Of a DNA stretch of 64,000 nucleotides, positions 41,417 through 61,344 are shown one piece after another (position 1 is the first letter of the stretch; every line of letters begins with the position of its first letter). The position numbers and the translations under genes were made by a program. Source of the DNA: Novakomyces olei (Eukaryota). Where the stretch lies: the NCBI GenBank assembly GCA_016906335.1, contig JADEYG010000001.1, positions 1,674,001 through 1,738,000 of the forward strand. The letters are read 5' to 3'. The notes under the pieces are model-generated. The model saw only the letters and a program-made list of their open reading frames with translations. It searched no databases and was not told the DNA's origin.

Positions 41417-41953
41417 TTCTGCTTGCCTGATAGCGCTTGTTTGTACAACTTTTTCCCATTGTAGTATGCTCAGCTACTTATCAAAACACCTATTTTAATT
41501 TTGTTCGATTTTGTTTAGTTAGTATTGCCTATGTAGCGCGTTTTGAACTTGAGAAGATGGGGATTATGAATTCGTAACAACAGCTGTATTAGTGATTGCA
41601 AAATAATTTAGCCTGCTTGCTTCCTGGGCGGGAAGCGCGTTGCTTTATACGAAACTGTATCAGCGAGGAAAGACATGTGATTTGTCTCCGTAAAGGAATA
41701 TACAACATGATATGACCTACAATGCAATTAGCGCTTGCGGATAATAATTGATTTCATTGTGTTTGTGTCGTGCCAACTTGCAATTAAGTCAAGTAAACTA
41801 GAAAGAGGGTAAAGTTGGTCATTAAATGGCATTGAACAAAACTGCTCTGTCACTACTGTCGTCATTATAGCACTCAAAATTTTACAACCAGTACAATCGA
41901 GACACATATGGCATTATAAAATATTCTCTCTCCAACTAGAAACAAAACGCACA

Positions 41954-43636
41954 TTAATTTTTTGGCGCCCGGGCATTAGCAGCGGCGACGTAGTGTCCCC
42001 AAGTAATCAGCTCTCCACTGCAATCGTCCTGGTCAATGACGCACTCAATCAGGGTTGGCCCATCTTTGTGGGTGTGTGCTTTCTTTATGGCCTCGATCAA
42101 TTCGCCAGAGGTAGTAGCACGGTACCCGTGAGCATTGTTGTGATGATCCCCATCAAGAGCCCTTACAAAAGCGCCATAGTCCCAGTTTTGGATGCGATTG
42201 TAAGGTCCGTCATGGATCTCCACTTCAATAGTGTAGCCTCGGTTATTGATCAAAAAGATCAAGATCGGCAATTTGTGTCGAACCATCTGGGAAACTTCTT
42301 GCGCAGTTACTTGGAAAGATCCGTCACCAATCATAACGACAATATGACGATCCCGTTCAGCGACAGCGTAGCCCATAGCGGCAGGAATAGACCATCCAAT
42401 GTGGCCCCATTGCATTTCAATCTCAAACTTGGCTCCGTGTGGAAGCGTCATTTGCTCACCATTGAACCAAGAATCGCCGGTATCAACAAACAGCGTTGTG
42501 TCCGACGTCAAGACCTGCTGTATCTGACGGGAAACCTCTTTGCGGGACAAACTTTCCGTGGGACCCACTTTATGGAAAGTGGGTGGGTCATTACGGATAC
42601 GATTGTACTCGACAAGAGTGGTATCGTTACGCTCTACTTTTGTCGCGAGCGCCACCAACAAATCTCCGAGCCGAATGCGTCCAAAATAGGCACCGGAAAA
42701 CGCCACGTGGTCCAGCTGTGCTACCATAATCGGACTGCTTGGGCGGGCTGTCCATCCCACGGTAGTGTAATCGGTAAACATAGTGCCCACGCAGATAATG
42801 GCATCGGCCCAATTAATAATCGTATCTGCCCCGCAAGTACTCGCCTGACCCCAGTAGATGCCGGCGAATTGCGGGTGGTCTTCCGGGAAGAAGCCCTTGG
42901 CGGAAGGCTGTACCGTCACGGCACAGCCAATGGCCTCGGCAAACTGAAGCAACTGCCGCTGAGCACTGGCCGCCCGTACTTTGGGGCCCACCAAGATTGC
43001 CGGCTTGGCTTTCCCACGCAAGTAATCGGCGGCAGTTTCTACAGCGTGGGCAAGCACGGACTCGTCATTGGGCTGAACGTTCCCCAGAGTGCTCAATGGC
43101 CCGGGGCGCACGCAAGGTGCACCCGACAAGTTTGTGGGGACTTCGATATACGCAGGTTTCCGTGTGATAAGCGCGGTGCGAATAGCGCGGTCGATAAGCC
43201 GTGGAGCATCGTACGCGCGTGGGATAGCAACGGCACATGACGTAATGTGCTTGGCCATTTCGAGCTGATAAGAATAGTTGTTGGTAGCAAGAGTGTGGTG
43301 CAAAAGGTTAAACTCGCCAGCGTCGTTTGTATTGGGGGCGCCGCTGATAAGAATGAGCGGCAGATTTTCACTATAAGCGCTTCCGGTGCCGTTGAAAGCG
43401 GAAAAGGCGCCCACGCTAAAAGTGACCACGCACGCAGAAACGCCCTTGGCACGGGCATAGCCTTCAGCGGCCATTGAGCAGTTTAGCTCATTGGCGCAAT
43501 TAACCTCTGACAGGTCCGGGTTGTTTTGCAGTTTGTCCAAAAGCACCAGATTATAGTCGCCAGGCACGACAAAGTAGTTCTTGACTCCGACTTGAGCCAG
43601 TCGCTCAGCGAGATAATCACCCACTGTGTATGTCAT
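41954..43636 (-). CDS. PDC: Pyruvate decarboxylase (ThDP-dependent; Neurospora Cfp/Zymomonas-like type), intronless
   Basis: TVGDYLAERL..PGDYNL, NELNC..AAEGYAR, LHHTL, MQWGHIGWS, GDGSFQ...NNRGYTIEVEIHDG. Confidence 0.95.
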   Translation of the reverse strand: MTYTVGDYLAERLAQVGVKNYFVVPGDYNLVLLDKLQNNPDLSEVNCANELNCSMAAEGYARAKGVSACVVTFSVGAFSAFNGTGSAYSENLPLILISGAPNTNDAGEFNLLHHTLATNNYSYQLEMAKHITSCAVAIPRAYDAPRLIDRAIRTALITRKPAYIEVPTNLSGAPCVRPGPLSTLGNVQPNDESVLAHAVETAADYLRGKAKPAILVGPKVRAASAQRQLLQFAEAIGCAVTVQPSAKGFFPEDHPQFAGIYWGQASTCGADTIINWADAIICVGTMFTDYTTVGWTARPSSPIMVAQLDHVAFSGAYFGRIRLGDLLVALATKVERNDTTLVEYNRIRNDPPTFHKVGPTESLSRKEVSRQIQQVLTSDTTLFVDTGDSWFNGEQMTLPHGAKFEIEMQWGHIGWSIPAAMGYAVAERDRHIVVMIGDGSFQVTAQEVSQMVRHKLPILIFLINNRGYTIEVEIHDGPYNRIQNWDYGAFVRALDGDHHNNAHGYRATTSGELIEAIKKAHTHKDGPTLIECVIDQDDCSGELITWGHYVAAANARAPKN

Positions 43637-45008
43637 GCTGCTCTAAACAATTTTGGTATTGCCCACAATGACAAAGAATTATATACTCCAAAACGTGGCG
43701 TGACAAAGGTAATAAGCGACACGTCGTTCGCCGCCCGGCTCGCTTTCGGGCTTGCGTGGGTCGATAGCCGGGTAGTCAGGGTTTTCTTTTTCTCTCGGAG
43801 ACAGGTGTGCCCGAACGAATTTGCCAATCGTACGTTGTAGATCTGTTTCACGTGATCGTGATGGTGAGACAATGGGTTCGGCGTCTATTCTATCGAATTC
43901 TGTCACGCTCGCCATGAGCGCTCTTTACTGTGCGGCTCACCTGTATTTGATTGGCCAAAGATTGATTGGCTAACATTTAATTGACTTTTTGGCCCTGTTT
44001 GATTGGCTTGTTTCCAGTCTACCGCTGGCCGCCGTATTGCCACGAACTTGAGTCTTATTACTTGGCATTTTGGGGCAGCAGTTTATGCGCAGACTGTTAA
44101 AACTGTCGTTCATAAAAGCTTTGTTGTCGCATGCGCACCAATTTCTTCTAGCCTGGTCTTATACATAGTAACTTGATGCGTACTTATAGGCAATTGATGA
44201 TTTTGTGAAGCATATAAGGCAGGTAGCAAAGAGCGGTCATCTCTCAACAATATGTGTACTTCAGACTGTCAGATTTAAATACTACAATGATAAATAGGCT
44301 GTAGACTGCCATGTTTTGTTCAGTCTACGCCGGGCATAATTTGTTCCTGTAATTGCAGGAACTAGGATTAGTGAATTATCACAAGTCTTAATTTTTAACC
44401 AGTTGTCGAATTATTAATATCTGTTAGAAATTTATATTTCAGCAAAGTTCCTTATGTAGAATGATTGAATTAGCAACAAACAATAGCTTCAGCTGAACCC
44501 CCCAAAGAGTTCTGGGAGTTCGCTTGGTCTATAAATATAACTATGAGTTGTAGAGTGAGATCCGGTAGTAAACTAAAGTCAAACAACTGACGGGCGCGTT
44601 GGATGTGTCTGAATATGGAAAAGATAAGCAAAACTAGTATTAGGGGACAAAAGACTCATATTTCAACAATATCATTTTCAACTTCGAACGGTGATATAAG
44701 CTATCTGCTAAAGTAACGAATGGTAAAGGTCCCACGGACTCAGAGGCTGCGCTGTTCCACGCCGTCTCCACACACGGCAATTTGCACGCATGAAGCCCGG
44801 GGGAAAAGGAAAATACATATATATAAACGTGCTGTCTGCGTGGCTCTGTAAATAAAACGATAGCGAGCCATATGCGTAGTAGCAGCGCAGTACTTGCGTG
44901 GCTGGAAATGTGACTCTAGGGTTTACGTGAGTTTTGTGTCAAGAGGTCGGTATTGCAACTTGCAGTGCAGACATGATATACAAATAAAAGCGCTTCTGCA
45001 AAACCACC

Positions 45009-46877
45009 CTAGTTCTTCTCCGTAGGGGAAGCCCGCTCAACGTCAACATGGCCGTTTTCCTTGCTGTAGGTATTCACGTTCTCGCCTTGTTCATAGGAGG
45101 AGGAAAGCTCCAAGCCTTCCGTCCGCTCATACCCAAAAGTTGTATGATCAACCAGGCTAGCCCTGTCCGGGAAGAAATGGCTGAGGGCGCCGTACACGAG
45201 AATACTGCTGACAAAGCCGTAGAGCCAGTCAAAAGAGTACAAGTTATTAGCGCCCGCAGAGATGTTGACCTTGCCCGGAGTGATACTGTACGCTAGTCCC
45301 GGCAAATTAGGGGCAATTGCAATGACAAAAGCAACGACGGCGCGCCAGTTAAAGCCGTAATAGTAGCGGTAGCGGCCGTGCGGGTCGTAGAGAGCGGGAA
45401 CGTCAAAGTGGCGGCGTTTGACAAAATGGTAATCAACGGCCATAATGCCGCTAAAAGGCGCAAGAAAGACGGCGTAGCCGCCCATAAAGGAGAGGAAAGT
45501 TTGGGCCGAGTTGAGGATTTCCCAGGGCACGATAACCCAGCCGCCGACGATAGCGGCAATTATACAGCCGCGAGTAATATTAATGTACTTGGGGCAGAGG
45601 ACGGTGAGATCGTTGGCAGCAGAGATGGAGTTGGCCGTGATATTGGTTCCGACTTGGGCGATGTACCAAGATAGGCCGGCAAAGAACATGGCAGCGCGGC
45701 CGCCGTGGGATCCCTGCCACTGGGAAATGATGTCGAGCGGGTTCCACATATAACTCCCATAAACGACTCTCGAGGCGGAGGTGGTGACGATGCCGAGGAC
45801 TCCGCAGACGGTAAAGATGAAGGGCAGAAAAGGCAGCTGAACATACTGGCCACGTGAGGTTTTAGCGTAGCGTGAAAAGTCTGGAATATTGCAGGCAAGA
45901 GTGGCCCAAGAGCCGGTTACGGAGGACATACAGGAGAGCCATTTCCAGGCGTAATCGCTGCCATGGACTTCGCGCGGGAGGCTGAAGAGCTCACCGCCAC
46001 CGCCGGCCTTGTGGACGATCCAGCCCATCGTGGCAATGGCCGTTACGGGAGCGGCTACGAGTTTAACGAGGAAGAGCCAGCGCAGACGCGTTGGTGGGAT
46101 AAGGAGAAGCGGGAGCTGAATGAGCCAGAACAAAAAGTAGGAGCACATGCCCATAGTAGTGATCCCGGCGCTGTCGGAGAGCCGATTGGGGATTCTGCTG
46201 TAGGAAGGCCAAATGGCAGAGAGCATGACTGTGATGCACACAGCGCCATTGGCGCTCTGGATACCGAGCCAAAACATGGCGAGAATGGCACGGGAAAAGA
46301 TGCAAAAGTAGGCAAAGTAGTAGCCAAAGCTGGAGCGTGTGATGACGGCGAAGGGGATGTCTGGACAAGTCAGCAAGTGAAAATGAAATGAAATGAAGAG
46401 GAATGAAAAGGAAAGGAAGAGGAAAGGAAATTAAAAGGAAAGGAAATGAAATGAAAGAAAATGAAATGAAATCAAAATGAAATGAAATCAAAATCAAAAT
46501 CAAAAGAAAAGGTTAAGTGGGTACGTACGCATTTTAGCGCCTATGGCGCCGTTGAGGACCATAGGAATGGCGACGCAAAAGGTGCCGACGACCATAATGG
46601 GGATAGCGTCGCGCCAGATGAGGCCGACAGATACGATAGAGGAGGCAGTTTCCCAGGTGCCGAGATTGATGGTGTCCGTGGCCCAGTAGGCCATCCAGGT
46701 GACGAGCGTCCACGTCTGGTCCTTCTCGGGCGTAGGGTCCATGTCCGGGTTGGTCCACACATCATCGGGCGCGACGGCCGACTTTTGCTTAGGCAGCTCC
46801 CAAGCCTTCATGGAGGTGAGGCGAGCCTTGACGGTCTCACCGCTCGGCAGATAACGGGTAGGGGACATTTGCGACAT
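45009..46877 (-). CDS. NCS1 nucleobase:cation symporter (Fur4/Dal4-like uracil/allantoin permease); intron 46361-46528
   Basis: WTNPDMDP, MHIPFAVITRSSFG after splicing, WLGIQS, NIPDFSRY, NITANSISAAND, VPW, DYHFVKR, NWRA. Confidence 0.92.
46378..46505. repeat. (GAAAT/GGAAA/CAAAAT)n simple repeat filling the NCS1 intron
   Basis: Directly visible. Confidence 0.85.
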
Positions 46878-46882
46878 GTAGG

Positions 46883-46979
46883 GCAATTTGGACAATTGGA
46901 CAATTGGACAATTGTTCAATTGGACAATTGAACAATCCGACAATTCCACAATTTGAACAATTCCACAATTCCACAATTC
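46883..46979. repeat. Degenerate 8-bp tandem repeat (GGACAATT/CCACAATT) just upstream of the NCS1 ATG
   Basis: About 12 CAAT(T)-core units are visible. Confidence 0.85.
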
Positions 46980-48518
46980 GAAGCTTGGGACGGATGGGCA
47001 GTTTTGTACTGACGTGTACGCTTGTAAGGATGCACTGATAAGGCCAAAAGTAGGCAATAAGAGCGACTGGTGACAGAGATATCAGGGGCTGAATATAGGT
47101 CTGGGCCTTTAGCGGCGTGGGCGCAGGCGAGTAGCGATAGCTCGATTAGGCAGAGATAAGGTCACGTGGATTCCCGATGGGGGAAAGTGCAAGCGACTGG
47201 AACGGGCGAATGAAATGGTTGGTGAACAGGCCAGGAGGGAATCCCACGCAAGCCGGAAGAGAGGGAGAAACCCACACAAGATGGAAGCAAGGTAAGAAGG
47301 AACTGGATGTGGGTTGGCTGTACCGCGTTGCTGCAGCGGTAGTGGCGAACAGCCGCATTGCCTCGTCCACGTGAGCGAACAAGTAGTCTACCGGTCGACA
47401 AGTATTCTGTAAGGAGAAAGTAGCTTTGCCGGTATTTTGCGTAATGTTGGAGGGTCCGAGTAGTGTTGCGTAGTGGTATATGTGCAATGTATACTGAAAG
47501 GGCCTAAGCTCAATATCATGTTATGATAATCTAACATTGGGCTAACCCACGGTTTATCTCCTTGTAGCGACTTAAACCACTAATTTAAAGGGATTATTAC
47601 CGAAACTTGGTGCTTTGAAAACATCACTGCTTCAGGACGCCGTTATCTATAGTTTCGCCTGTATTGCGATAGCGCGCTGCTACCTTGTTTCATTTCTACA
47701 GGGACTGGATACTTAGGTTACTTAAATCAAACATTGGTTTGGGTCCTAGCATTTACGAGTAGTATGTTTGCCGTCCACACTTGCTTGGGCTATAAAACTT
47801 GCATAGGATGAAAAGTAATGCTTGATACAGTAATTGACTCAAACAATGACGAACACTAAGATAGCCGCCCGCAGCTATCTATTGACGACTACGACACGTA
47901 GTAAAAGAATAAAAGACAAGAAATTTGAGCTTTAATAGCAAATACGAGACAATAGATAATAATAGTTCTAGTTTCAACCTTTTTCTTGCAAGGCGGAACA
48001 TCTCTCTTGTATACGATTGTTGTCCTTGTCCCCTTTGTCGAGTGATACTTCCCATGATGGGGTACAAGGGCAATAAGATTACTTGTTTATTACATATGGA
48101 AGGTTTTGTTTTCGATAAGATAAATGTTGAACTGTATTTCTGGGGAAAGTCAAGATTGACGTCTTTGGTGGTCTGAAAGTTGCGCCGAAGGAGGTTCTGC
48201 ACAAGAGGCGCAGGCCACTTTTCAGCGCCTCGGTATTGACGGCAATGGCTCGTATAGCCACACTCGTTCGCCACAATAGAGCAAGCACTGTCAAAGCTGG
48301 AGTGTTTTATTGTCGACAAGATTGCACTTCAGCTCAGTCACTACCAGTGTTGGGTGTGTGTCGCTGAGTTGGACGACTCATTGTCCCGGAGGCGACTACG
48401 GATGCCGGTCGACACAGCAGCAATTTGTTAGTAGTAAGTGTTATATGGGCATGCGTATTGTTGGAACTACACCCTACAACAGCCTACACGAACATAAAAA
48501 TCAAAATCACGTTCATAT

Positions 48519-49505
48519 TTAAGCATTGCCAGATCCTGGACCTGTCCCTGGGCGATATGAACTAATCTTATATCTGTCTATGAGATCTGTCTCAGGATCC
48601 CACCCTAACACTGAAACCGGATTCGGTCTTGTTGCGGCAACTTGATTGCCTTCAATTGTGTCACCATCGAGCGGGTCAATTTCGATATTCTGTTTTCCGT
48701 GAACATCAAAGACAATATTTCCCACGAACTTGTTTCCACGGCCTTGCTTTGTGTGATCGACTGGGTCATCTTCAGATATAATACCACTTCCTGGTGCACT
48801 AATCACCAAATTTCCTTGGACCGTGTCGCCCGATGCCCCCATGATGGCGATGCCTCTTCCGTAAGCGTTTTCAAGAGCAAAATTCTTCTCAAAAATGTTT
48901 CCCTTATCGGCCGTAGGGTCCGTTTGATAAGAATCATCGGAAAAAGAGTCATCGCCTGCTTGGTACACTTGATTAAATTCCACAACGTTGTTCTTGGACT
49001 GGTTCATAATTGCAATGCCATCAGCATTTGAGCCTTGAACCAAATTATGAATAATTTGGCTGCACTCGGAATTATCTACTCTGATCCCGTTTGAACCAGC
49101 ACCTAAAGTACAAACATGACTCACTGTTGCGCCAGAAGCGTTTTGGACCAAGATAGCAGCTGCCTCAGGCATGTTGCTTCGTGTTGGAGAGGACGCTTTA
49201 ATTACAAGTTGCTGTAGAACTGATTTAGAGCCCGACAGTCGTAAAGCACTTTGATTTGGATTTGTTGCAACCATCAAAGTGGCATATCCTGCTCCAAACA
49301 CGGTAGCATTTTCCATATTAATAGATCCAGAGTGATTGTAAGTTCCCTCTGGAATATACAGCGGACGCCTTTGGCCCGCTGCATTTTGAATTGCGCTCTG
49401 TAGCGCCGCGGTATGATCTTCTAGATTCCCTGCATTGTATGAAAGAGCATTGGAAAACTGATTAGCACTGAGAGGCTTCTTTGACGGTCCAACTCTGCTT
49501 GCCAT
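48519..49505 (-). CDS. Pectin-lyase-fold right-handed parallel beta-helix protein, intronless, no signal peptide
   Basis: D.TAALQSAI...LYIPEGTY N-cap, then stacked NGIRV, ADGIAI, GDDSFS, GRGIAI, GSGIIS coils with an Asn ladder. TATATAA lies about 70 nt upstream. Confidence 0.8.
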   Translation of the reverse strand: MASRVGPSKKPLSANQFSNALSYNAGNLEDHTAALQSAIQNAAGQRRPLYIPEGTYNHSGSINMENATVFGAGYATLMVATNPNQSALRLSGSKSVLQQLVIKASSPTRSNMPEAAAILVQNASGATVSHVCTLGAGSNGIRVDNSECSQIIHNLVQGSNADGIAIMNQSKNNVVEFNQVYQAGDDSFSDDSYQTDPTADKGNIFEKNFALENAYGRGIAIMGASGDTVQGNLVISAPGSGIISEDDPVDHTKQGRGNKFVGNIVFDVHGKQNIEIDPLDGDTIEGNQVAATRPNPVSVLGWDPETDLIDRYKISSYRPGTGPGSGNA

Positions 49506-50405
49506 TTTCGAGTCCAGAATTGACAAGATAGGTGCTTTCAAGTAAAAGCGCTTTGCTACGCTACGTCAAGGCTTATATATTCTTAAACATGCTCATCAAT
49601 GTTATCACAATCCAATACACATCCGCACCATAGACAATTTCGGGGATGAGATTTCCAGTTCATATCTGATTCTCGTAGAGCCCATGCAGGTCGTTCAAAC
49701 AAAAGTGTGCGCATTACAACGTGAAGCGAAGCAATTCGGCACTATCGGCGTTTCCTTGTGCGGTTATAAGCAGGTCGTAGTCCTCTATCTCTGCAAAAAA
49801 GTTCAAGTTCTAAAGAAACAGAGATACGGTTAGTCACGTGTTGGTCTCAATATGGCGGAACAGGACTTGACGTCGCATGATAAGAGCCATATTCTGACGA
49901 GTTTATCAATTAGTGCTTTCATTTGCCGAGCCTCGGCCGATAAATGATGATCTATTTTTCAAGCACGTCTAAATTCTTTCCTTATTTAGATGTACAATCA
50001 GGAATATTGCACTGGATACGACAGAGGCCGCACTCGATATCGGTTTCCTGTCACCCACCGGTCGCCTAGCAGCGCCCGCTGAAGTGAATTATTATATCAA
50101 ATTATACCAATTCAGAAGATCTGCAAAACACCATTTAGTGAATTTGAGCCTGTACTGTAAGCGCGTGCCATATCGACGTGATCTGTAGGCAAATTGGTGA
50201 AAGCGCAGTCTTTATTACCAATTATAGTAGTCAGTCGACGGCAGAATGCGGGTCTCAACGCAAAGCACGTGGAAAAATTGCATCTGCTTTAGTGATTTAC
50301 GAGCTTTGCAAAGACTTTACGTATTAGACCGCGCAAGTGTTTTCGAATATCGGCCGCGTTTATATAAGGACAGCGGCTTTGAAATCAAAAAAGTATCTCA
50401 ACATT

Positions 50406-50975
50406 ATGGGCGACGCACCGGTAACAATAATCATAACAAACAAATTTCCCTACACAATCAAAGTGGGAGAGTTTGTGAGTCAAAACGCTAATCCCGTCAA
50501 TACAGTCAATATTCCGCCAGGACAGGAGAGATACCTTGGATACTGGTTCCAGCAGAGCGGATATGTCGCAGTGGCAGATGCAAACGGAAATTTTCAATGG
50601 AACGCTAGTCGTCTCGAGTATAATGCAAACGGCCAAGGCCTGACGTCAATTGATGTGAGCTACATTGATGGAAGAAACTGCGCAATGTCCATAGATGATG
50701 GGCAGGGAAAGCGTAAAGGTGATCATAGTTGCATTGCAAATCAGGCACCAGGTGATTCTGTTTTGCACGACAGCGGAGGTCGTCCTACAATTGCGGGATG
50801 GTACGATGGAAATTCAAGCGCTGGAAAAGATGGTGAGGCATACATGAGAAGAGTGTTGCCAGCTGGATCAGCCTATCTTAGACCAAATGACGACACTCTA
50901 CCTTTTTCGCAAAACCCTATGACTATGTCGATGGATCCCAGCAAGCATTATTATGTTGATTTTGGGCCCGCGTAA
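50406..50975 (+). CDS. Small thaumatin/osmotin-like-fold protein, Cys-poor, no signal peptide
   Basis: ITNKFPYTI, SRLEY, DVSYIDGRNCAM and AYLRPNDD parallel the TLP motifs N.C.YT, TLAEF, YDVSLVDG.N.P and AYSY..DD. TATA at about 50361. Confidence 0.6.
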   Translation: MGDAPVTIIITNKFPYTIKVGEFVSQNANPVNTVNIPPGQERYLGYWFQQSGYVAVADANGNFQWNASRLEYNANGQGLTSIDVSYIDGRNCAMSIDDGQGKRKGDHSCIANQAPGDSVLHDSGGRPTIAGWYDGNSSAGKDGEAYMRRVLPAGSAYLRPNDDTLPFSQNPMTMSMDPSKHYYVDFGPA

Positions 50976-51269
50976 AGTCAAACTATTCGTACTGCTTAAT
51001 TAATTTTATTGTTTCTAGTTTAGTGGACCACTGTGGCATCGCAGTTCTAAAGAATGAACGACTAGACAATACCTTTTTAAAACCAGTCCAGCATACAACA
51101 TAAGCACATTTAATAAGTCATTTCCTGACTTCATCGCACTACGCATGTGTTATGGAATATATATCTGAAAATATGAACTCAAAAAATCATTGACTCCAAA
51201 CTTCAAGTAAAAACGCGCATCTGGGGCATACAAGCCATATGATATTCTCATGTCCACTCTGGTACAAAG

Positions 51270-52085
51270 CTATATATTGATGTAGGTGTCGCCGAGAGAT
51301 GTATTGACCCCCGGACCAGCGAGTAGCGACGTGAAATGAGGATCTGGGCTGAGTTTACCCGTGAACCAGGCATATCGGGCAACATCATTTCTGTCTTCAC
51401 AAATCGAAACCATTTCTCTCATTTGACCAATTTGCTTTGCTTCGCTTGTAATTTGCGCACCGTCATTCTGGCTATGCCAGTTTGCAAATTCAGTGACCCA
51501 GAAGGCTTTTCCATACTTTTTGAGCCTATCTAACTGTGCGCTGAGCCCATAGTCATACCAATGGAACCCTAAATAGTCAATTTGAGGATGCCTGCCACCA
51601 TGAGCTGAAGAATAGGCTTGAATGAAAGCATCAAGCCACTTAATGGGGTCTTCATAGCCTTTCATGGTCCCCCATGTAATCTGAGGACCAACAATTTTAA
51701 CGTTGGCGCGTGCAGCCACATCTTCATATCTAGGCCAGAAGCTGGCAGCGCTTTGAGGGGTGGCATTCGATTGACCAGTCAAGTTTGGCTCGTTCAAGAC
51801 CAAAATGTACTTTGTAGAAGGATTGTCTCGTAGTAGACCCAAAACAGCATCTTCGTCAAAATTATTATCCCACAACATAGGAATAAAGTCCACATCTTCA
51901 GAAGCTGAAAGCGCCATAGATACACCTTCATCGGGTGACAGTCCCCAGTTGTAATACCAAGATATTCCAGGCGACAGAGCATTGAGGTCGCCGCCAAATT
52001 TCAGGTTATACGCGAGACCCTTTTTAGGGCTTTTGTGTGGCATAGTCAAGAGGTCAGTAGCACCAGATTTCAGTTTAATTGCCAT
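51270..52085 (-). CDS. GH128 beta-1,3-glucanase catalytic core, intronless, no signal peptide (start may be the second ATG at 52043)
   Basis: KKGLAY, SWYYNWG, FIPMLW, LNEPN (acid/base), GFHWY, WVTEFA (nucleophile), RYAWF. Confidence 0.88.
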   Translation of the reverse strand: MAIKLKSGATDLLTMPHKSPKKGLAYNLKFGGDLNALSPGISWYYNWGLSPDEGVSMALSASEDVDFIPMLWDNNFDEDAVLGLLRDNPSTKYILVLNEPNLTGQSNATPQSAASFWPRYEDVAARANVKIVGPQITWGTMKGYEDPIKWLDAFIQAYSSAHGGRHPQIDYLGFHWYDYGLSAQLDRLKKYGKAFWVTEFANWHSQNDGAQITSEAKQIGQMREMVSICEDRNDVARYAWFTGKLSPDPHFTSLLAGPGVNTSLGDTYINI

Positions 52086-52529
52086 TTTGTAGTCTATACC
52101 TTTTATATAGTTATTCGCAGCCTAGGAGGAGAATGCGTGCTGTCGTGCGTTATCAACCAGCTCGTAGATCAAAGAGGCGCCTTTTCAGGGTATTTTGGAA
52201 ACGATAAAACTGATACAAACTGCGCGTGAGATAAGCAGGCTACAGCCTCGGTAAATATAATTTAATCAGGACCAATTCAGACCGCTGATCCATCATCCAG
52301 TTTTCGTCCTGTACTAAATACAGAAATTTTGAACGAAGGACCGAAGCAGCCATTGTCCTAGAATCTTGGTTAATCAATGGGAGTTTGGTTTCACAATTTT
52401 GCATCCGCCTTATCTATTCTCGTCCTACTCCCTATCCCGCACCATATATTCATCTACCTACTCGTAACTGGAAACGGCAAACTTGGTCACCGAGCTTTGA
52501 TTTTTATCAGCCATTTCCAAATTGAAGGG

Positions 52530-53285
52530 ATTATTAGCTTTGTTTACGATATTTGGAACGCCTACTGCTGGAGCCCTCGGAGGTCGAGGGCTTGGAGCCA
52601 GCACACTTGAGCAAGCCAGGGCCATGATCCAATAGACCCGTGCGCTTACACCACACGTGATTCATGCAAATGTATTTCGCCATAAACGCTAGCGCTGCCC
52701 GCGGATGACGAGATTGCCAGCGAAGTGCTATTCGTTTTTCAACCGAGTCTATGAGACTCGGCCCTTTAAATCCCACGAAACTGCTCCGGGATATACGAGT
52801 TTCCGTGACAGCCAAGCAATGTTACAGGTCCTCCTGCAAACCCAGCCCACGCAGCACCATCTTACCATAATTGCAGTGGGCAGTATCATGGACGGCCAAA
52901 GAATTAAAGCTGTATTGGAATTAGGCGCTAGCGGTGCTCAATTAGGAACCGCTTTTGTGCTGTGTCCCGAGTCTGCTGCTGACGTGGGATATCGGCAATT
53001 GCTGCAAAGCCCACGAGCTATACCACCCGGCTGACGGGTACTATTTCGGTCAAACCGGCACGAGCAATTGTTGACAATTTTATAAGGCAACCCGAGGTAT
53101 TAGAGATTAAAACGCCGGTGATCTCTCGGGCGTATTCTGCATAAAAGGCGCTTTATGCGGCTGCTAAAGCTCGAGAAAGTTATGAGTATGGGGCTTATCG
53201 GGCGGGACAGTCGACTCCTTCAGCCCGCACTCTACATGCTGCTGAACTCGTTGCAAAATTGCATTCTGAACTTGCACACACTTGA
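52530..53285 (+). pseudogene. Decayed nitronate monooxygenase (2-nitropropane dioxygenase family)
   Basis: Fragments across frames: RALTPHVIHANVFRH, YTSFRDSQAMLQVLL, IIAVGSIMDG...GAQLGTAFVLCPES, ISVKPARAI, KALYAAAK...YRAGQ...AAELV. Frameshift near 53020, in-frame TAA at 53142, central region missing. Confidence 0.8.
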
Positions 53286-53595
53286 CGATTTTTTCAATAA
53301 TTTGTCATACAATCTTAACCTGCTAGCCATGGGCAAAAATTGTTGAATATTTACGAATGCCCTGGCATGCAATACAATCAGACTGGCCTCTGATTCAAGC
53401 TTTTAATGTGCTCTCTTTTGAATATCTATGTATATTCGTATATGATGAGCTCCGCCTATTATCACATGACCGTCTAAAAGGCAAAACCGCCCAACAAAAC
53501 ATACTCTACTTATTCATTAATTTCAACTTTGCAGTTAGAAACCGTGAGCTGATCATTAAAAATAGAAAATTCGAGCCATTCCGGTAATATTGGAA

Positions 53596-54465
53596 TCATA
53601 ATTCATCGCGGAATATGCGAGTAAGCAGAGGCATAATATAGTGTATGATGTATAGTCCACCGTTCGGACTAGCCGTACCCACAAACTCCAATTGGTTCCT
53701 GGGTGGCAATTTTATGGCAGATTCCTGGGCGATTGATTCGCTGCCAGCAAAACCGTTACCGTGGAGTACAAAAGCTAAATGAATAGAATCGTGGGTCTCA
53801 ATGACACATTTTTGGCCTTCTGTTATGTGTATTATTTCAACGGCCAATTCACGCTCCGAAAAAACGCCTAATGGCTTCCTAAAGGTCCCAGGAAACTCCG
53901 TTATCTCTTTCCATCCAAAAGCTTCTGGTCTCATAATAACGATAGCGTTATACCGCCCAAGAGGGTACGTCAGTTTGCGTTTATTATAATACTCCCAGAG
54001 AGCCTGATAACCGTCAAGACTTTCACCATTATCTCGCACATATTTTCCGGCCTCGAACTTCCCGTATTTTTGTAACTCTTCCTGGCCTTTTGAGAGCTGT
54101 TCATGAGCTAAGAAGCCCTGGCCGCTTGCGCCTCCAGTTTGCAGTACTAAGACAATCCGTTCCCCGGGCCCGTCATCTTGAGGCCCATACTTTACACCCT
54201 CGGGATGGTAGCTTAACCAGCCCTGGCGCAACAAGCCATCAGGGCCAGGAAGCAGAGATATATCGCCCTTGTAAGCATACCGAAACTGATCAAAATTGTG
54301 GCTATGCGTTGGCGAATAAAACTCTTCCTGGCGAGCAAGAACGAACAGAAAGTTTTCTGGTGTCCCCTCGTCACCCTTAAACAACGTTTTGAAGGCTAAA
54401 CCACTGCCTCGATGTTTAAGCCCAAAGCGCTCAAAGTCTATCCCTGCTCCGTGGACAATCTCCAT
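53596..54465 (-). CDS. Uncharacterised RmlC-like cupin protein, intronless
   Basis: Cupin-like metal motif SPTHSHNFDQFRY..KG followed by YHPEGVKYGPQ and LVLQTGGASGQGF. Confidence 0.7.
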   Translation of the reverse strand: MEIVHGAGIDFERFGLKHRGSGLAFKTLFKGDEGTPENFLFVLARQEEFYSPTHSHNFDQFRYAYKGDISLLPGPDGLLRQGWLSYHPEGVKYGPQDDGPGERIVLVLQTGGASGQGFLAHEQLSKGQEELQKYGKFEAGKYVRDNGESLDGYQALWEYYNKRKLTYPLGRYNAIVIMRPEAFGWKEITEFPGTFRKPLGVFSERELAVEIIHITEGQKCVIETHDSIHLAFVLHGNGFAGSESIAQESAIKLPPRNQLEFVGTASPNGGLYIIHYIMPLLTRIFRDEL

Positions 54466-55141
54466 TCAGGGCAAGAATAAGAGGACAAAAATACTAAAGG
54501 AGCGGCATGTAAGCTTCATTCAGATTCGAGACACGGACAAAGATCCATTGTTTGCTCATTGCCTATTTTATCACTTTAGCTTTAGTGCGATCTTCCGGGA
54601 AGGGAGAAGAGGCGCTATATATATATTACGTAATTCTTATGCGGGCTTTATTCTTGCCGTCGGCCCTTTAAGATGCTTATCTTAGAAACCCTAACCCTAA
54701 GCGTGATGACACTTGAATAAACGCCGACCCCAGCAAATCTCCGCGAGAAAATTCACGAGACAGTGGAAGATTGCTTAAATGGAATATTACCATAACATTA
54801 AAGCTTTAAATTTACGGTTACTTGAACGGTTTATCTATTTCAACGTCCCCATATTTCTTCTCCCTTTATTGTTGTTCGAACTGGAACAAAATTATGTTCC
54901 TACGAAAAGACGTGCTGGGCCAAAGCCGCGCGCAGATAGAGCGCCGACGGTAATATGCATTTAGGATGAGCAACGCACTAGGGCACATGTTCCTGCGGGT
55001 TGAAGTGCCTAAAACATCGATTTTCAGTCTGTTACTACCGTACCCATACTATTACCTGTTTCCAGGACTGGCATCGAAACAAATCAGCGTAACACTCTTT
55101 GTAGAGATTTAATTATATACTGTGTAATGGGCGAACTGAAT

Positions 55142-55954
55142 TCATACATCTTCATCAGTTATACCATCAACTCCGGGCCAGTCTTGCGTATCTTTATTAG
55201 CCCATTGCGCCACTAATTTAACAATCTCGGCAACCTTATCGATTTCCTCCAACTTCATCCCAACTCTTTTCAAGCCACGAAGATGCCAAAGTGTAGGGTT
55301 ATGCAAACCTTGGCACATAATGCCAGGCACAACGACAAGCTCGGTTTCCAAGCTGTTGAGTATCTGTAAGTCCGAGAGAAAAAGACCATAGATTACGTTT
55401 TTTTCCAACCAATCAAAACTGTCTGCATGACTACCAAATTGTTCAAAAATTGCTGGTAGAGTATGTTGGTATATTGACTGAAGGAACTTGGTCCCCCGCT
55501 CTTCTATCGCATCGTCTAATTTGTAGTCTTTCCTGTGCGATAAGCATTTCGTCTGGAGACCATTCAAATATTTAATTAGCAAAAAGCATAATTTCATACT
55601 GATGAAAGTCGGCTTCTACATCTTCAGCGCGTTCGACTTTTGCCAGCGAAGCGACTGCCTCTATCACCAACGGAATGCCGACAATGGTCCATATTTTGAA
55701 AAATAGTTCACGAAAGCGTCGAGAGAGCCGCCGTCGTTCTTCCGTATTTTGGAATTCCGTTTGCTTCGTTAAATATTGGTATAAGTCGGCAATATTTGCG
55801 GACCGCGAACAAGCAATTAATGAGACTGCCTGAATTTAATTAATACAATAAATGCCGGCTTGACATGAACTTACGACAGAATAAACCAAGCATCAGAGGC
55901 TATTGACTCCGGCGAATGCGCTTTAAGCTGGTCAAAAAGATCGGTCAAAGACAT
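55142..55954 (-). CDS. AhpD/carboxymuconolactone-decarboxylase-like all-helical protein, 3 exons
   Basis: Spliced MSLTDLFDQL..WFILS|AVSLIAC..RFRELFFKIWTIVGIP..|..RGTKFLQSIY..IYGLFLSD..LETELVV..WHLRGLKRVG. Confidence 0.7.
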
Positions 55955-56209
55955 AATGAAACTTGATAATTGTCTATTCTGGACTTTGCGTATGTTTCAC
56001 ACCTTTTGTAAACGTTTTATGGATCCTGAAATATAAAATGGACTAAAATTTAATATATTGTACACATCCTCTTCAAACATTTTTAGCCGAGATGCTGCTG
56101 TTGGCGATCCAGAGATTCTAAAAATAGGAAAAATACACTGATTCAACGAGCTTAATCCTTTCCACTGCGCAGAGATTATGTTACTGAAGTGAAACGCAAC
56201 TAAATGCCT

Positions 56210-56231
56210 CGGAATAACATGAATTATTCCG
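56210..56231. promoter_or_regulatory. Perfect inverted repeat CGGAATAA-N6-TTATTCCG in the divergent AhpD-like/deaminase promoter
   Basis: Seen directly. CGG...CCG geometry is typical of Zn2Cys6 sites; function is inferred. Confidence 0.5.
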
Positions 56232-56671
56232 CGACTTTAATCATTTGTTAGGGTCAGCTTTTTTGAGATCATATACTACTATATGACGGTAACATAAACC
56301 TTCAAATTGCATATAGCTTAATCACATTCTCTCAATTTTTAATTTACTCTGTTTCGCCTAAATTGGGTCCAGCGCCATGATAAGCATGATGCACCAACAC
56401 CAACGGTCGTCGTGCATAATGCCCGCAGCATCGATAAAAATACTTTAATTACTTATATGTCGGACAAAATCTATATTTCTACAAATATTAGTCCAAAGGA
56501 TTAGGGTTTATGTCCGCTACTAGCTCTGCTTAAAATGAATCCTACATTTTTAACCAAAACCTTAAGAGTCTATCACGACCAAAATTCAGTTTTTGCACAC
56601 GAAAACTTGTAACGTGGGATGCATTTAATATTTATATAGCTTGGATACCCATTTCCCCCCAAAACGAAATT

Positions 56672-57721
56672 ATGACTGTCGCCGAAATAGAGCGCCTTGA
56701 GCGTATTTGTCATGCGATACCAAAAGTGGAACTTCATTGCCATTTGTTGGGAACGTTGCGCCGAACAACTTTTCGATCTTTAAATAGAAAAGCCGGAAAT
56801 CCTCTTAGTGATACCGAGATTGATCAGTTTTACACTAGAGACGAAAAGCCAATTGGGGTTTTAAGGATTTTGCGAGCACTGGAATCAGATTTGATAACAG
56901 ACCCATCAGATCTTTGCAGAATAACTGAAGAATACCTCGAGGACGCTCAGGCACATAATGTGTTCTATACAGAGTTTTTTTGGAATCCAACTGGTTCAGT
57001 ACGCGCGGGTTGGTTTTCATATGATCAAGGTCAAAAAGCCATCACTGACGCTATTCGCAAAAGCAAAACCAGAATCGGAATTTCTGGCCGATTAATACCT
57101 GCCATTGATCGGGAGGCCGATCCAGAGGAGGCAATAAAACTTGTTAACTGGATGATACAATACCGGGATCCTCTAGTCATTGGATTAGGCATTGATTACA
57201 ATGAGGTTAATCATCCACCTGATCTTTTTGTGGAAGCTTACAAACGTGCGCGAACTGCAGGCTTTTTTACTACAGCTCATGCAGGAGAGTTTGGTTCTCC
57301 CTGGACAAACATTGAAACAGCTCTCACTCAACTTGAAGTAAGCAGAGTCGATCATGGGTATACTGTAATTGATAACCCAGACCTTGTCCAGCACTGTTTG
57401 GATAATGATATTATATTCACAGTGGTTCCAACTAATTCGTTTTACCTTCGAACATTAGATCCTTCTGTTTGGGCACAACGACATCCTATTCGTGAGATGG
57501 TTCGTCTCGGTCTAAGAGTACATCCAAACACAGATGATCCGACTTATCATCGGACAACGCCAACAAAGTCGTGGCTTATGATGCTTACTGAGTTCAATTG
57601 CTCTGTCGCTGATCTCAAGCAATTTTGTTTAAACGGAATCGACGGCGCTTGGGTACCTTTGCGAACAAAAAATATTTGGCAACAACAATGCTTGAAATTT
57701 TTTGATGATTTAGAGATATAA
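56672..57721 (+). CDS. Adenosine/adenine deaminase-family metallohydrolase, intronless
   Basis: PKVELHCHLLG, GIDYNE, TAHAGE, RVDHG, NTDDP metal and catalytic motifs. Confidence 0.9.
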   Translation: MTVAEIERLERICHAIPKVELHCHLLGTLRRTTFRSLNRKAGNPLSDTEIDQFYTRDEKPIGVLRILRALESDLITDPSDLCRITEEYLEDAQAHNVFYTEFFWNPTGSVRAGWFSYDQGQKAITDAIRKSKTRIGISGRLIPAIDREADPEEAIKLVNWMIQYRDPLVIGLGIDYNEVNHPPDLFVEAYKRARTAGFFTTAHAGEFGSPWTNIETALTQLEVSRVDHGYTVIDNPDLVQHCLDNDIIFTVVPTNSFYLRTLDPSVWAQRHPIREMVRLGLRVHPNTDDPTYHRTTPTKSWLMMLTEFNCSVADLKQFCLNGIDGAWVPLRTKNIWQQQCLKFFDDLEI

Positions 57722-57893
57722 TCCCATCGGGCAGAAGCCGTCTCGTGCATTTAGTATATATTGATTAAAGCGCAGTGGGAAAAATTGTACGGATTTGTTT
57801 ACATACGTGTCTTATTATATATATATTTCATTTACACAACAGAAATTCAGCTTCAATTAATCGCCACAAGAAATGAAATTAGATTGTTGCCCA

Positions 57894-59414
57894 CTAGAGC
57901 TTGTACCTGAACTCTGGGTCTTGCTTGTCTGTCAAGTCAGAAGCGTTCGGAGGCAGAGAGCTAGATGATGCAACCTTTCTCCGATTTTCCCACATCAGAT
58001 AACATCTCAGAACCGCACCAAAGAGAATAGTTAAACAAAAACAAATAATCATAGCCTTGAAAGAGGTCTCATAGCGTGGAGCTTCAGAATTTCTGAAAAG
58101 CTGAGGCGCACCAATATTGCAAGCACTAGACTGTTAGAAATACGCGATATATATAAAAAGACAAATGATTTGAACTTCTAAACAAAATGTAAATTTCAGA
58201 ACAGCTTACCAGTATATTATAAACATCAATGCCGTGGCAGAGTTTCGCTTCGTGGCACCAATAAAGTTCCCTCCGAGAATAGCAAGTACACTGGGAAACG
58301 TTGCTGGCTGCACCTGCAAGAGATAGTATCCAAACAGTCGCAGTCCTTTAGCATGAGACGGAACTCTATAAATTATGATTGCCCCGGCAATAGGCAAGAT
58401 TACAGAGGCAATAATGACAAGACATCGCATATTTTTCCATTTACTGGCAACAAATCCCGCGCTAACAATTGCAATCCATGTAATAACAGAAGCAGGAACC
58501 ATCAGCAATGTAGTCTCAATTGATGTATAGCCAAAGCCATCAACAATGATAAAACCATATGATAGAATAGCGCCATTAGGCAAGATGGAAAGAACAGTGA
58601 TGCCAGCGAGCAGCCAAAACTGGATATCAGTAACGCATTCCAACAGCTGAGACCAGTTCCATTCGCTTTTAATGGGCTCCTTTACTTGAACACGAGCATG
58701 AATTTCCTTCTCTTCCGCCGTTAAAAAGCGAGCTGTTTGTGGGCTGTCCGGAAGCAAAAAAAAGATCAAAATTCCCCAGGCTACAGTAACGCAGCCTTCC
58801 ACAATAAAAATGTACCTCCAAGACGAGGTGCCACCATTAATATGACCTAATCCAAAGGCAACAAAACTGGATACGATCCCGCCAAAATCGTTTCCTGCCC
58901 ACCAAATACCCGTGCGCAAAGGTTGCTGGCGAGAAGACCACCATGTAGATGAAATAAGAACGAATATAGGACTAATTCCGGATTCCAAAAGTCCCGAGAA
59001 GAATCGAGCGGCTAACAGTCCGGAGTAAGAATGGCAGGCGGAGGTTGCCGCTAAGACTACACCCCACAAAACCAAAAGTGTACCTGTTAACTTTCCAATA
59101 GGCAAGACTTGCACGAGACGAGCAATTGGCATATTTCCCAGTAAAAATCCAAAGTAAAAAATTGCCGATACCCAGGAATAAGCTTGCCCGTGTAGATTAT
59201 TGTCAGTGCGCAAGTCAAAAACTGCCGCCGCACTGAGCGAAAGTTTGTCCATAAATTGTAACGAATAGGTGAGGAAAAGAAGTGGTAATAAGTTAAGGTC
59301 AATTTTTCTTGTTATAATCTTCCATTTCTGAGCATCAACTGATGAAACGTCGCCTTCAACCTCGTTCTCGCGCAGTTTGTCGTCGACTACGATATCAATC
59401 GATTTAGTCGTCAT
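57894..59414 (-). CDS. MFS Dal5/allantoate-permease-like transporter; one intron near 58128-58209
   Basis: RKIDLNLLP, LQFMDK, YSWVSAIFYFG, ARFFSG..E, QQPLRTGIW, WRYIF..EG, LPDSP. Last exon reads CNIGAPQLF...DLTDKQDPEFRYKL*. Confidence 0.9.
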
Positions 59415-59827
59415 TTTGAGACAGAACACCAAGAGGGTAACGAGCCGAAAAATCAATGAATGATCAAAAATAAAGTAAACACTAGAAGTCCTTGACTATC
59501 CTCCGTCTCAAATCCTAAATCGATCCCGGCAATTTGTTGTTCGACAGACTTTAAAATAATCATGGCATGATAAGCCAATTTATATGTGTTATGGTCATCT
59601 TTATTTATTAGACGGAAAATATCTTATCGCTCGGAAAATTATTGGATTTACCGAAACGTGGGCTATTTATCCGGAAGTTATCCAAAAACTTAACCCTGGC
59701 CCTGCCTGATAAGTCAAGGTTCTATGCCTACAAAGTTTAGGACACATAGGAAAAAGGCACATAAACTAATTATACAATAGAGCTGAAGTGTATACCAATG
59801 CTATAGACAATTCTTAGATAAATATGT

Positions 59828-61344
59828 TTAAGAAACAAGGCCAGGATACTTTGCACGCAGGGAATCTATGATCAAATTATCCGCTGGAATCGAGCTTCTA
59901 ATGCCGTCCCAGAGCTCTTGGGCCAACACGCCCAATGTGTGGCTAGCATGCGTAGTGTTATCACTTACTGTGTTGAAATAGTGGCAGACCTTCCGTATTC
60001 GATCGTCTAAATTGAAATTTTTGCAGATCTGATGAGAGTGATAGTTCATCCGAATATGCATGAGAACACAGAGCGCATAAAACAAGATGATGAAATAATT
60101 TCTGGTGAATGCGAGTTGGTAACGCTGTCGGTTAGGAAAATCCTGCATGGCTAGAGCGATGAGACGCACTGCATGAGTGCACACAAAGTTCAGGTCCCGT
60201 TTAATATCAGTGAAACAATTGCGAAAGGGTCGAAAAAGTAAAAGCTGTGATAAATAATATGGTATTTCCACCATAAAGCCCATTTGCTGGGCAAAGAGGT
60301 ACTGCCATTCTTCACGCCACTGTTCCAAATCATTGTAATGCAAGCAATCGAAATTTTTTGCACTTAAATGCCGAAATAAAATGCTGTACAATGCCACTTC
60401 TGCAATAGTTCGGCCGTCTCGCGCAGTCGACAGAACGGAATTAAAAATACACAATCCGTAGTTTAAGTCATCATCAGGAATATTGCAAGGTCTACCAGAT
60501 GTCACTGAAGCCCTAATGTGTACAAGAACAAGTCTGTTCCAAGCACGAAACCGTTTCACAGCAACGCTCTGTTCCGGGATAGAAAGTGAAAATATATCGA
60601 CGACATTGCGTTCGCGAAGCCAATCGTTAGAAATACAGCAGTTTATGCCGTGGGCACTAATTAGCCATGAATCGATATTGACAGTGGGCATCTCGTATGG
60701 GCAAGATGAGAGAAGCACAAACATTAGCACTTGCTCAAATGACTGCTCCAAAGAAAAGACTGTTGCCCCCATCGACTCTATAATCTTTTTTTCCAAACGT
60801 TTGATATTGTCGCCGTCACGTATTTCCACGGGCAGGGATTGCATACCGATCCAGAGGCACAAATACAGGAGCAAGCTACTTGCTTCAAGTTCACGCCAAG
60901 TTACGCTGCTGATATCGCCCAGTAAATTTGAATTATACTCCTCAAAACTGAAGGTAAATAAAAACTTTTGTTAAAGCATAAATAATCCAAAGACAAACCT
61001 CTGCAAAGCATGAGCAATCAGGCTTTTGGAAAGACTCAAACCTGGAGCGAAGCCGATTTCCCGGATGCTCGATGATTTGTTTACCATAATAGACGAGGTG
61101 TTTAAATCCACAGCTGTACTATCTGTTAGACCATCCAACTATACTGAACCTACCCTTGTCCCTGATTGAAAGGCAAATTCAAGAACGAGCACGCAATTTC
61201 CTTTGTAGCGCACCTCCGGCATGTCATTTTAGTGGATTCCTCCATCCAAAGCCATTCACATTTTACTTTTGAGGCCTGACAAGCTTGGCATGCCGTGTTT
61301 GGTCGTCTTTTAAGTTTCGACTTTGAGATGCGTGAGCCAAACAT
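59828..61344 (-). CDS. Zn(II)2Cys6 transcription factor, multi-exon
   Basis: ACQACQASKVKC...CRRCATKEIAC binuclear cluster at 61150-61344, joined to a downstream fungal TF middle-homology-like region (RAWNRLVLVH...SGRPC). Confidence 0.8.

Follow-up and report, generated by a model that had tools for sequence, protein, structure and literature searches.

The 64,000-nucleotide stretch of Novakomyces olei DNA analysed here (contig JADEYG010000001.1, positions 1,674,001 to 1,738,000; hereafter the window, within which all positions are counted) carries three adjacent intronless open reading frames (ORFs, called with the standard genetic code), followed by the remains of a nitronate monooxygenase (NMO) gene (Table 1). 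ORF1 encodes a right-handed beta-helix protein, ORF2 a protein with the thaumatin fold and ORF3 a member of glycoside hydrolase family 128 (GH128), in agreement with an earlier description made from the letters alone (the sequence-only reading), which had taken the locus for a bacterial-looking island of glucan-active genes without export signals. ORF1 and ORF2 diverge from a common spacer of about 900 bp, inside which no ORF with a family match was found, and ORF3 converges on ORF2; the spacers of the island measure 295-900 bp, with TATA boxes within them, and all three frames are uninterrupted over 189-328 codons. The three ORFs are almost certainly real genes residing in a fungal chromosome.

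Table 1. Features of the island, with positions counted from the first letter of the window
Feature	Position	Strand	Description
ORF1	48519..49505	-	328 aa, right-handed beta-helix glycanase (predicted), GH87-like minimal catalytic domain, no predicted signal peptide
ORF2	50406..50975	+	189 aa, cysteine-poor thaumatin-fold protein, no predicted signal peptide
ORF3	51270..52085	-	GH128 subgroup-II-type, 271 aa from first ATG, no predicted signal peptide
ORF1/ORF2 intergenic region	49506..50405	.	900 bp, divergent, common to both genes; candidate bidirectional promoter
TATATAA	49573..49579	-	74 nt upstream of ORF1 ATG
TATATAA	50361..50367	+	45 nt upstream of ORF2 ATG
TATATAA	52103..52109	-	24 nt upstream of ORF3 first ATG, 66 nt upstream of Met15
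Nitronate monooxygenase pseudogene	52501..53285	+	Fragments in at least 2 frames

Each of the three genes is preceded by a TATATAA box on its own strand. This heptamer occurs 23 times on both strands of the window (about 0.018 per 100 nt per strand) against 10.2 expected, a frequency so low that its presence within 100 nt of all three ATGs is far beyond chance. An A also stands at position -3 in front of every ATG, as read from the sequence, and the canonical TATA boxes of the sequence-only reading are borne out. No repeats or non-coding RNAs bracketing the island were found within 43000-58500, and no tRNA in the window.

None of the three products has a hydrophobic N-terminus: over residues 1-45, the Kyte-Doolittle hydropathy of 9-mers peaks at 0.61 in ORF1, 1.48 in ORF2 and 0.76 in ORF3, and the absence of signal peptides, judged by hydropathy alone, agrees with what had been read before. 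Overlooked 5' exons supplying signal peptides had been allowed for in the sequence-only reading; a scripted heuristic search for upstream exons with an ATG that could be spliced to the frame through an intron with GT, branch and YAG signals gave 0 candidate models for each of the three genes, and the ORF starts precede the conserved domains by 2-17 residues.

ORF3 matches the whole length of the Pfam profile PF11790 (Glyco_hydro_cc; positions 1-237 of 237, E 6e-48, 163.8 bits against a cut-off of 21). Its best matches in the PDB are 6uaw (E 5e-98, residues 15-270) and 6uav (E 2e-97, residues 18-270), other GH128 structures being much weaker (8j3x next at about 8e-38, the remainder from 4e-31 down to 1e-9, the fungal chains among these). 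The structure 6uav is named PvGH128_II and belongs to subgroup II (PMC10956234), and PvGH128 is described as an endo-acting laminarinase (PMC13195107). ORF3 retains each of the 82 columns that are invariant in an alignment of 27 sequences, including N98-E99-P100 and T198-E199; these NEP and TE motifs align to 6uaw, and their glutamates are taken as the catalytic pair of a retaining mechanism (in part after PMC10956234). ORF3 is a predicted GH128 subgroup-II endo-beta-1,3-glucanase with its catalytic motifs intact. It differs from the subgroup-II enzymes whose full-length match and motifs it shares in having neither signal peptide nor lipoprotein leader, in being carried by a eukaryote and in falling on a separate signal-less branch. 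On that branch, in the careful version of the ORF3 tree, it pairs (support 100/97) with P0030, a 250-aa protein encoded on a 5-kb contig, and the pair is sister to 37 other sequences. P0030 is a second GH128 subgroup-II-type protein without a predicted signal peptide and may be another eukaryotic copy. Its first residue aligns with Met15 of ORF3 (MPRKSFKKG against MPHKSPKKG; 63% identity), an alternative start (codon at 52043) that would give a protein of 257 aa; no signal peptide is predicted from either start. With the TATA box a mere 24 nt ahead of the first ATG, translation may actually begin at Met15, which we regard as the likely alternative.

ORF1 is recognised by the Pfam models Beta_helix (6e-10) and Pect-lyase_RHGA_epim (1e-9). 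Against the catalytic domain of family GH87 (CatAgl_D2, PF22816) it scores 20.0 bits, below the cut-off of 27, and its relatives score 23-28 bits. An AlphaFold2 model of high confidence (predicted local distance difference test, pLDDT, 95) finds as its best fold matches the GH87 alpha-1,3-glucanase Agl-KA (5zru; template modelling (TM) score 0.70, 20% identity) and then 7c7d, with alginate epimerases, GH110 enzymes and phage tailspikes lower in the list; 7c7d is also the sole significant PDB match by sequence (1e-6). The relationship to GH87 (Agl-KA 5zru, Streptomyces 7c7d, Paenibacillus 6k0m) extends to the putative active site: in a profile of 60 members of the ORF1 family, an ADG...GDD motif aligns to the same motif in 5zru, D162, D185 and D186 are invariant in the 60 sequences, and the 23 residues between D162 and D185 equal the spacing of D1045, D1068 and D1069, the positions named in the PDB titles of GH87 mutants. 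In contrast with these shared features, identity is about 20% and ORF1, with its 328 aa, falls well short of the solved chains, which have about 560-610 (539-578 as aligned target lengths, for which the TM score normalised to the target is 0.40-0.41). Being about half the size of the GH87 catalytic unit and below the Pfam cut-off, ORF1 is not filed as GH87, and its substrate is a guess. We consider it a minimal GH87-like glycanase, probably an alpha-1,3-glucanase or related glycanase, and it may represent a separate family, whose members are named 'GH28-related' or 'parallel beta-helix repeat protein' by their sources.

ORF2 matches no Pfam family even at E 10, including Thaumatin (PF00314), and no thaumatin-like protein (TLP) in the PDB by sequence up to E 10. 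Its AlphaFold2 model (pLDDT 89) nevertheless retrieves thaumatin or TLPs as the first 28 entries in Foldseek, headed by 7p22 (E 2.6e-11, TM 0.74), with GH64 beta-1,3-glucanases and SUN4 domains far below. The label 'thaumatin-like' of the sequence-only reading is thus right at the level of the fold and does not extend to the sequence family. Classical TLPs have 16 or 10 cysteines and ORF2 has two, so that the TLP disulfide framework is absent; the bacterial relatives of the type found with type III secretion systems (T3SS; see below) mostly have 0 cysteines, and short secreted forms have two other conserved ones. ORF2 is therefore a thaumatin-fold protein of a separate family. Compared with TLPs (PR-5, GH152; Amycolatopsis 7p22, Puccinia 7p23), it shares the fold and has motifs resembling the acidic-cleft strands, while differing by the lack of a PF00314 match, its two cysteines, the lack of a predicted signal peptide and an identity of about 15-19%. 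It retains 29 of 29 invariant columns in a 30-sequence alignment, including the ASRLE and SYIDGRN motifs, which would be equivalent to the acidic-cleft strands of TLPs; the invariant acidic residues of the family are E71, D88, D98, D106 and D162. ORF2 probably binds beta-1,3-glucan or acts as a weak glucanase. Its family is small (29 matches in a word-indexed search and 31 representative clusters in a full HMMER search of 1.84 billion proteins) and has neither a Pfam nor an NCBIfam model, NCBIfam yielding nothing useful for ORF1, ORF2, ORF3 or the bacterial thaumatin-fold proteins. The best identity to ORF2 is 48-49%, to P0216, and none of the 31 clusters exceeds 49%.

The three ORFs could in principle be neutral relics without function and heading for decay, as would befit genes that adjoin a clear NMO pseudogene and that sit on long end branches in all three trees. 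Against this, every family-invariant residue is retained in ORF1, ORF2 and ORF3, the frames remain open along their whole length, a TATA box and a favourable start context accompany every gene, and the models of ORF1 and ORF2 are confident. We therefore hold decay to be very unlikely.

The trio is physically integrated in a eukaryotic chromosome. The flanking genes encode a cytochrome c heme lyase, a carnitine acyltransferase, a Ysc84 actin regulator, DUF7029/DUF7223 proteins, major facilitator superfamily transporters and a purine-cytosine permease, the latter a neighbouring gene of two exons separated by one intron with GTACGT, CTGAC and CAG signals. In Logan contigs of the probable source run, a single contig of 32.9 kb spans 40000-56362; in a run from a different study, a 2.5-kb contig spans 46935-49439 with 0 differences and joins exon 1 of the permease gene to most of ORF1, and another spans 53011-54342. 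Read depth is even across all 30 bins, island and flanks, in two runs. Composition is fully ameliorated to the host: the three ORFs have a GC content of 0.45-0.46 and a third-position GC content (GC3) of 0.37-0.44, and in GC, GC3 and codon fit they do not fall outside the values spanned by 15 other long ORFs of the window. Bacterial contamination or an assembly chimera, which the bacterial identity of the best organism-named matches might evoke and which the sequence-only reading had entertained, is extremely unlikely, because contigs from two studies bridge to an intron-bearing gene and the composition is host-like; the eukaryote-like spacers with TATA boxes and the flat depth point the same way, and 20 metagenome loci of the bacterial thaumatin-fold family have a GC content of 0.47-0.72, at least 0.65 in 16 of them.

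DNA identical to 40000-59900 in the pieces displayed (0 differences) was also present, at about 4x depth, in the run of about 1 Gb from the other study, which bears a different organism label, with traces in a sister run; the fungus therefore lives in or on some other material that has been sequenced. All four runs compared consist of DNA contigs, and no RNA run was listed as containing 46000-55900.

All relatives of the three ORFs that bear an organism name are bacterial, and no fungal name occurs among the 215 matches listed. For ORF1 these are six of 66 matches, at 35-51% identity (Stigmatella, Hyalangium, Trinickia, two Paraburkholderia and a Pseudomonadota metagenome-assembled genome (MAG)), for ORF2 one of 29 (Kozakia) and for ORF3 five of the 120 listed, at 58-64% (Granulicella, Terriglobus, a Gemmatimonadaceae MAG, Rhizosaccharibacter and Silvimonas). 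The ESM Atlas clusters nearest to ORF1 are 100% Bacteria; those most like ORF2 (scores 0.94 and 0.93) are mostly Ascomycota, so that a fungal family is possible for ORF2. A motif scan for the ORF2 family over 185,579 prokaryotic species genomes (one genome per species) returned 29 loci, 25 of them in Acetobacteraceae (Gluconobacter, Acetobacter, Tanticharoenia, Rhizosaccharibacter and MAGs) and the remaining four in two Lichenihabitans, one unclassified alphaproteobacterium and Cernens. The trees of the three ORFs are unrooted and contain no identified eukaryotic sequences among their rows. The four forms with which ORF1 groups (support 97) have a signal peptide or a CVNH domain; next to them come the types of the metagenome loci L039 and L042 and of Burkholderiaceae. 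ORF2, in a tree of 78 rows, groups with seven signal-peptide forms of about 215 aa that have two conserved cysteines (Shimodaira-Hasegawa-like approximate likelihood ratio test, SH-aLRT, 99), apart from 70 T3SS-type sequences. Taken together, ORF1 and ORF3 are likely to descend from bacteria, and for ORF2 the balance between a bacterial and another origin is even. Given the identity of relatives to the ORFs (45-65%) and the full amelioration, the transfers would be old or from unsampled donors.

The sequence-only reading had assumed that the genes arrived as one acquired block, and the bacterial loci speak against this. No ORF1 or ORF3 homologue lies within the fetched flanks of the 29 genome loci of the ORF2 family. 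Among the 20 metagenome loci, a beta-helix gene stands 0.5-3.7 kb from the thaumatin-fold gene in two (L039 and L042) and GH128 in none, bringing the count over all 49 loci to 2 for the beta-helix and 0 for GH128 in fetched flanks. Five whole genomes with a thaumatin-fold gene include one with GH128, and the beta-helix query matched none of them; in Rhizosaccharibacter, the GH128 gene (61% identical) is about 350 kb away from the thaumatin-fold gene. A single bacterial operon as donor was rejected on these counts, and transfer as one three-gene block is very doubtful. The trio would rather have been assembled in the fungus, or have come from an unsampled donor. Bacterium-to-yeast transfers of metabolic genes and operons are alike in involving intronless bacterial-type genes that are clustered and have gained eukaryotic promoters; in contrast, the present locus does not mirror a bacterial operon, and its products are wall hydrolases without export signals.

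The least expected result concerns the bacterial relatives, most of which for ORF2, and many for ORF1, have no Sec signal and carry a long Gly/Ser/Gln/Pro-rich N-terminus with short helical 'LLQQL' stretches. The earlier claim that the fungal enzymes lost export signals therefore holds in so far as they are domain-only and signal-less, while many of their bacterial relatives lack a Sec signal too and have harpin-like N-termini. These relatives lie in T3SS gene clusters. L039 (20-3467) has in order an FlhB/HrcU/YscU-family gene (PF01312, 1e-64), a thaumatin-fold gene and a beta-helix gene, and in L042 (624-10201) thaumatin-fold and beta-helix genes alternate with two HrpK1/HrpF-type translocator genes (PF16937, 3e-44 and 6e-22). 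Overall, tblastn detects an HrcU-family gene in the fetched flank of 28 of the 49 thaumatin-fold loci and an HrpK-like gene in 6 of the 49, 5 of them additional, so that either gene occurs in 33 of 49, several of the remaining loci being contigs of 2-5 kb; further T3SS-cluster coordinates of the family are around 8400-10600 in L001-L013 and L051:52-8558. A homologue of 37% identity is annotated on a plasmid of Klebsiella aerogenes, between sctJ/sctL/sctN and an HrpK-domain gene; plasmid tblastn with ORF1 gave matches of 26-29% identity only. P0221, the Lichenihabitans form (the thaumatin-fold protein of L025:9273-9839), has 499 aa composed of DUF1521 (PF07481, 25.8 bits against a cut-off of 23.6), a long Ala/Gly/Pro linker and the thaumatin fold. 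In L026, L047 and L048 a related N-terminal module (72-84% identical) precedes the thaumatin-fold gene by 1.4 kb, and in L042 such a module stands at the head of the beta-helix protein. DUF1521 is a domain known from rhizobial T3SS effectors.

The bacterial relatives thus look like a harpin-plus-enzyme T3SS helper design with glucan-wall domains. With HrpW-type fusions of harpin and pectate lyase they share the Gly/Ser/Gln/Pro-rich N-terminus, a domain for wall polysaccharide and HrcU/HrpK neighbours; they differ in that their enzyme domains suit a glucan wall and not pectin, and the fungal genes keep the C-terminal domain only. Title- and abstract-level searches found no publication on a thaumatin-fold/harpin T3SS fusion and none relevant on the T3SS of Acetobacteraceae or Gluconobacter against yeast, which does not prove absence from print. 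The relatives of ORF1 and ORF2 would make up an undescribed, Pfam-less family present in T3SS clusters of acetic acid bacteria, lichen-associated Alphaproteobacteria, myxobacteria, Burkholderiaceae and a Klebsiella plasmid, a placement that hints at secretion systems aimed at glucan-walled (fungal) cells, and this bacterial side may matter more than the fungal one. It is conceivable, if improbable, that some Proteobacteria turn a T3SS on fungi, with harpin-like helpers whose thaumatin-fold and GH87-like domains breach the glucan wall, and that these domains, together with a bacterial GH128, were captured by the fungus, stripped of their secretion parts, brought together at a single locus and turned into an internal wall-opening kit serving spore release, fusion or autolysis. 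If so, the island would record an old conflict between bacterium and fungus, and the bacterial family would be a new class of T3SS accessory protein.

The explanation that we favour as a whole, tentatively and at slightly less than an even chance, is that of a bacterial-derived and signal-less kit working on the wall from the inside. Three families of domain-only proteins that would act on or bind wall glucans, each under its own promoter in a fungal chromosome, would have been acquired from bacteria long ago, not as one operon copy, with at most the beta-helix and thaumatin-fold genes travelling together, and would since have been retained by selection. Without signal peptides, the proteins would most likely accumulate in the cytoplasm and reach their substrate from inside. 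This substrate would be the alpha/beta-1,3-glucan wall of the cell itself, on which the three proteins would act together at a set moment, such as endolysis of the ascus, sporangium or mother-cell wall, cell fusion or autolysis. Inside-out wall lysis as the function is more tentative still, a possibility drawn by analogy and well short of even.

Several observations weigh against this explanation. The shortfall of ORF1 against the GH87 profile (20 against 27 bits) and its half size leave the substrate a guess, and its nearest relatives, with signal peptide or CVNH domain, sit on long branches that call for caution. The tree neighbours of ORF2 are the seven short signal-peptide forms, which are absent from the motif scan of the 185,579 prokaryotic species genomes (only 2 of the 7 carry the scanned motif), and eukaryotes, mostly Ascomycota, make up 78% of its top Atlas cluster (191 aa, score 0.94). 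ORF3 and P0030 are sister to the 37 other top matches and not nested among them, and the endolytic role is proposed by analogy. The bacterial origin proposed by the sequence-only reading agrees with the organism-named relatives and is qualified for ORF2 by its short signal-peptide neighbours and by its largely ascomycete Atlas cluster.

Another reading is that of rare families kept patchily and vertically in fungi, or passed from fungi to bacteria, whose bacterial look would come from poor fungal sampling. The Atlas clusters most like ORF2 are largely ascomycete, each ORF groups first with sequences unlike the typical bacterial form, identity to any bacterium is just 45-65% and amelioration is complete; moreover, five proteins of the window were absent, by exact look-up, from a collection of 15 billion proteins, so that this lineage is not annotated there. 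In contrast, the ORF2 family forms no more than 31 clusters in 1.84 billion representatives, none of them above 49% identity, fungal names are missing from the listed matches, the closest Atlas clusters of ORF1 are entirely bacterial, and GH128 subgroup II is not known outside bacteria. Weighing these points, we consider a fungal descent of the trio unlikely.

A precedent for inside-out wall lysis exists in Schizosaccharomyces pombe. Agn2 is a GH71 endo-alpha-1,3-glucanase and Eng2 a GH81 endo-beta-1,3-glucanase. Agn2, Eng2 and Exg3 are alpha- and beta-glucanases that lack a signal, work from the cytoplasm and serve ascus-wall endolysis and cell fusion (PMC4384723, PMC9214231), and Agn2 and Eng2 are present in the epiplasm and carry out endolysis of the ascus wall from within (PMC9214231, PMC3846778). 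A module of this kind, which the sequence-only reading did not recognise as described, has therefore a described counterpart. The likeness lies in a set directed at alpha-1,3- and beta-1,3-glucan, signal-less throughout, in what is here an ascomycete-like genome. Unlike the S. pombe enzymes, the trio comes from unrelated families (GH87-like, GH128 and thaumatin fold), and is clustered and of bacterial type; since it has no homology to GH71 or GH81, the relation is one of functional analogy and not of membership in the Agn2/Eng2 system.

The main rival to inside-out lysis is that the proteins leave the cell, by unconventional secretion, cell lysis or a missed 5' exon, and serve in antagonism of other fungi or in glucan foraging. 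The nearest relatives of all three are extracellular tools (Sec-signal forms and T3SS-cluster proteins), the three activities combined fit a fungal wall, and the route by which the signal-less S. pombe glucanases reach the outside during cell fusion is 'currently unknown' according to PMC4384723. Export is made rather unlikely by the lack of a hydrophobic N-terminus in all three proteins, by the empty search for upstream exons, by starts that lie close ahead of the conserved domains and by the TATA boxes directly upstream.

Bacteria-to-fungus transfer of carbohydrate-active enzymes is well known, as are signal-less glucanases, so that the fungal side of the locus is less exotic than first proposed: the finding is real, had for the most part been well read, and is a moderately unusual variant of known gene transfer. 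What is new is the presence side by side of three bacterial-type genes directed at wall glucan, each cut down to its catalytic domain without export signal, in a locus that is no copy of a bacterial operon. On horizontal transfer of GH128 to yeast, no publication was found at the level of titles and abstracts, which leaves absence from print unproven. Should the inside-out role be true, developmental wall lysis would have been rebuilt in a fungus from foreign parts, an instance of convergent recruitment.

The NMO gene that follows the trio is a frameshifted and largely deleted pseudogene, as its fragments lie in separate frames and the remainder is unrecognisable; the decaying monooxygenase noted earlier is confirmed by partial matches in Pfam and the PDB. 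Positions 52693-53034 match only positions 181-243 of 331 in Pfam NMO and residues 209-269 of 4qit (E 1e-16), and 53145-53282, in a different frame, match residues 307-349 of 4q4k (E 0.02). No Pfam match was found for 52501-52632, 52983-53141, 52374-52607 or 52289-52522, nor any PDB sequence at E 1 for 52983-53141. The N-terminal two thirds are mostly missing or unrecognisable, and the 5' limit at about 52501 is a judgement, that end being without significant match. Directly after the pseudogene comes an intronless ORF of 289 aa (53596-54465, minus strand) with a sub-threshold match to ChrR-cupin; used as queries, the NMO fragment and this cupin-like ORF had no match in the 50 loci searched. 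A further intronless ORF of 151 aa (55142-55597, minus strand) belongs to no Pfam or NCBIfam family.

Between the permease gene and ORF1, at 47495-47746, lies a short dispersed repeat, a possible solo long terminal repeat or small mobile element beside the island. Several diverged copies of it occur both in the source run and in that of the second study; over the repeat, depth is raised 2-5 fold, and loose ends flank it on either side. The intron of the purine-cytosine permease gene (46373-46518) is filled by a TTTCA/TTTCC-type microsatellite. At the start of an adenosine deaminase gene (56398-56981), short variant contigs with substitutions and small indels are found in both runs, which suggests a paralogue or allelic variation. 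Finally, families common in bacteria are found elsewhere in the window at 26959-27768 (plus strand), 37450-38961 (minus) and 62906-64000 (minus), comprising two luciferase-like monooxygenases, one partial and one full, and a GH127 beta-L-arabinofuranosidase; acquired or accessory genes of metabolism may thus be frequent in the region as a whole.

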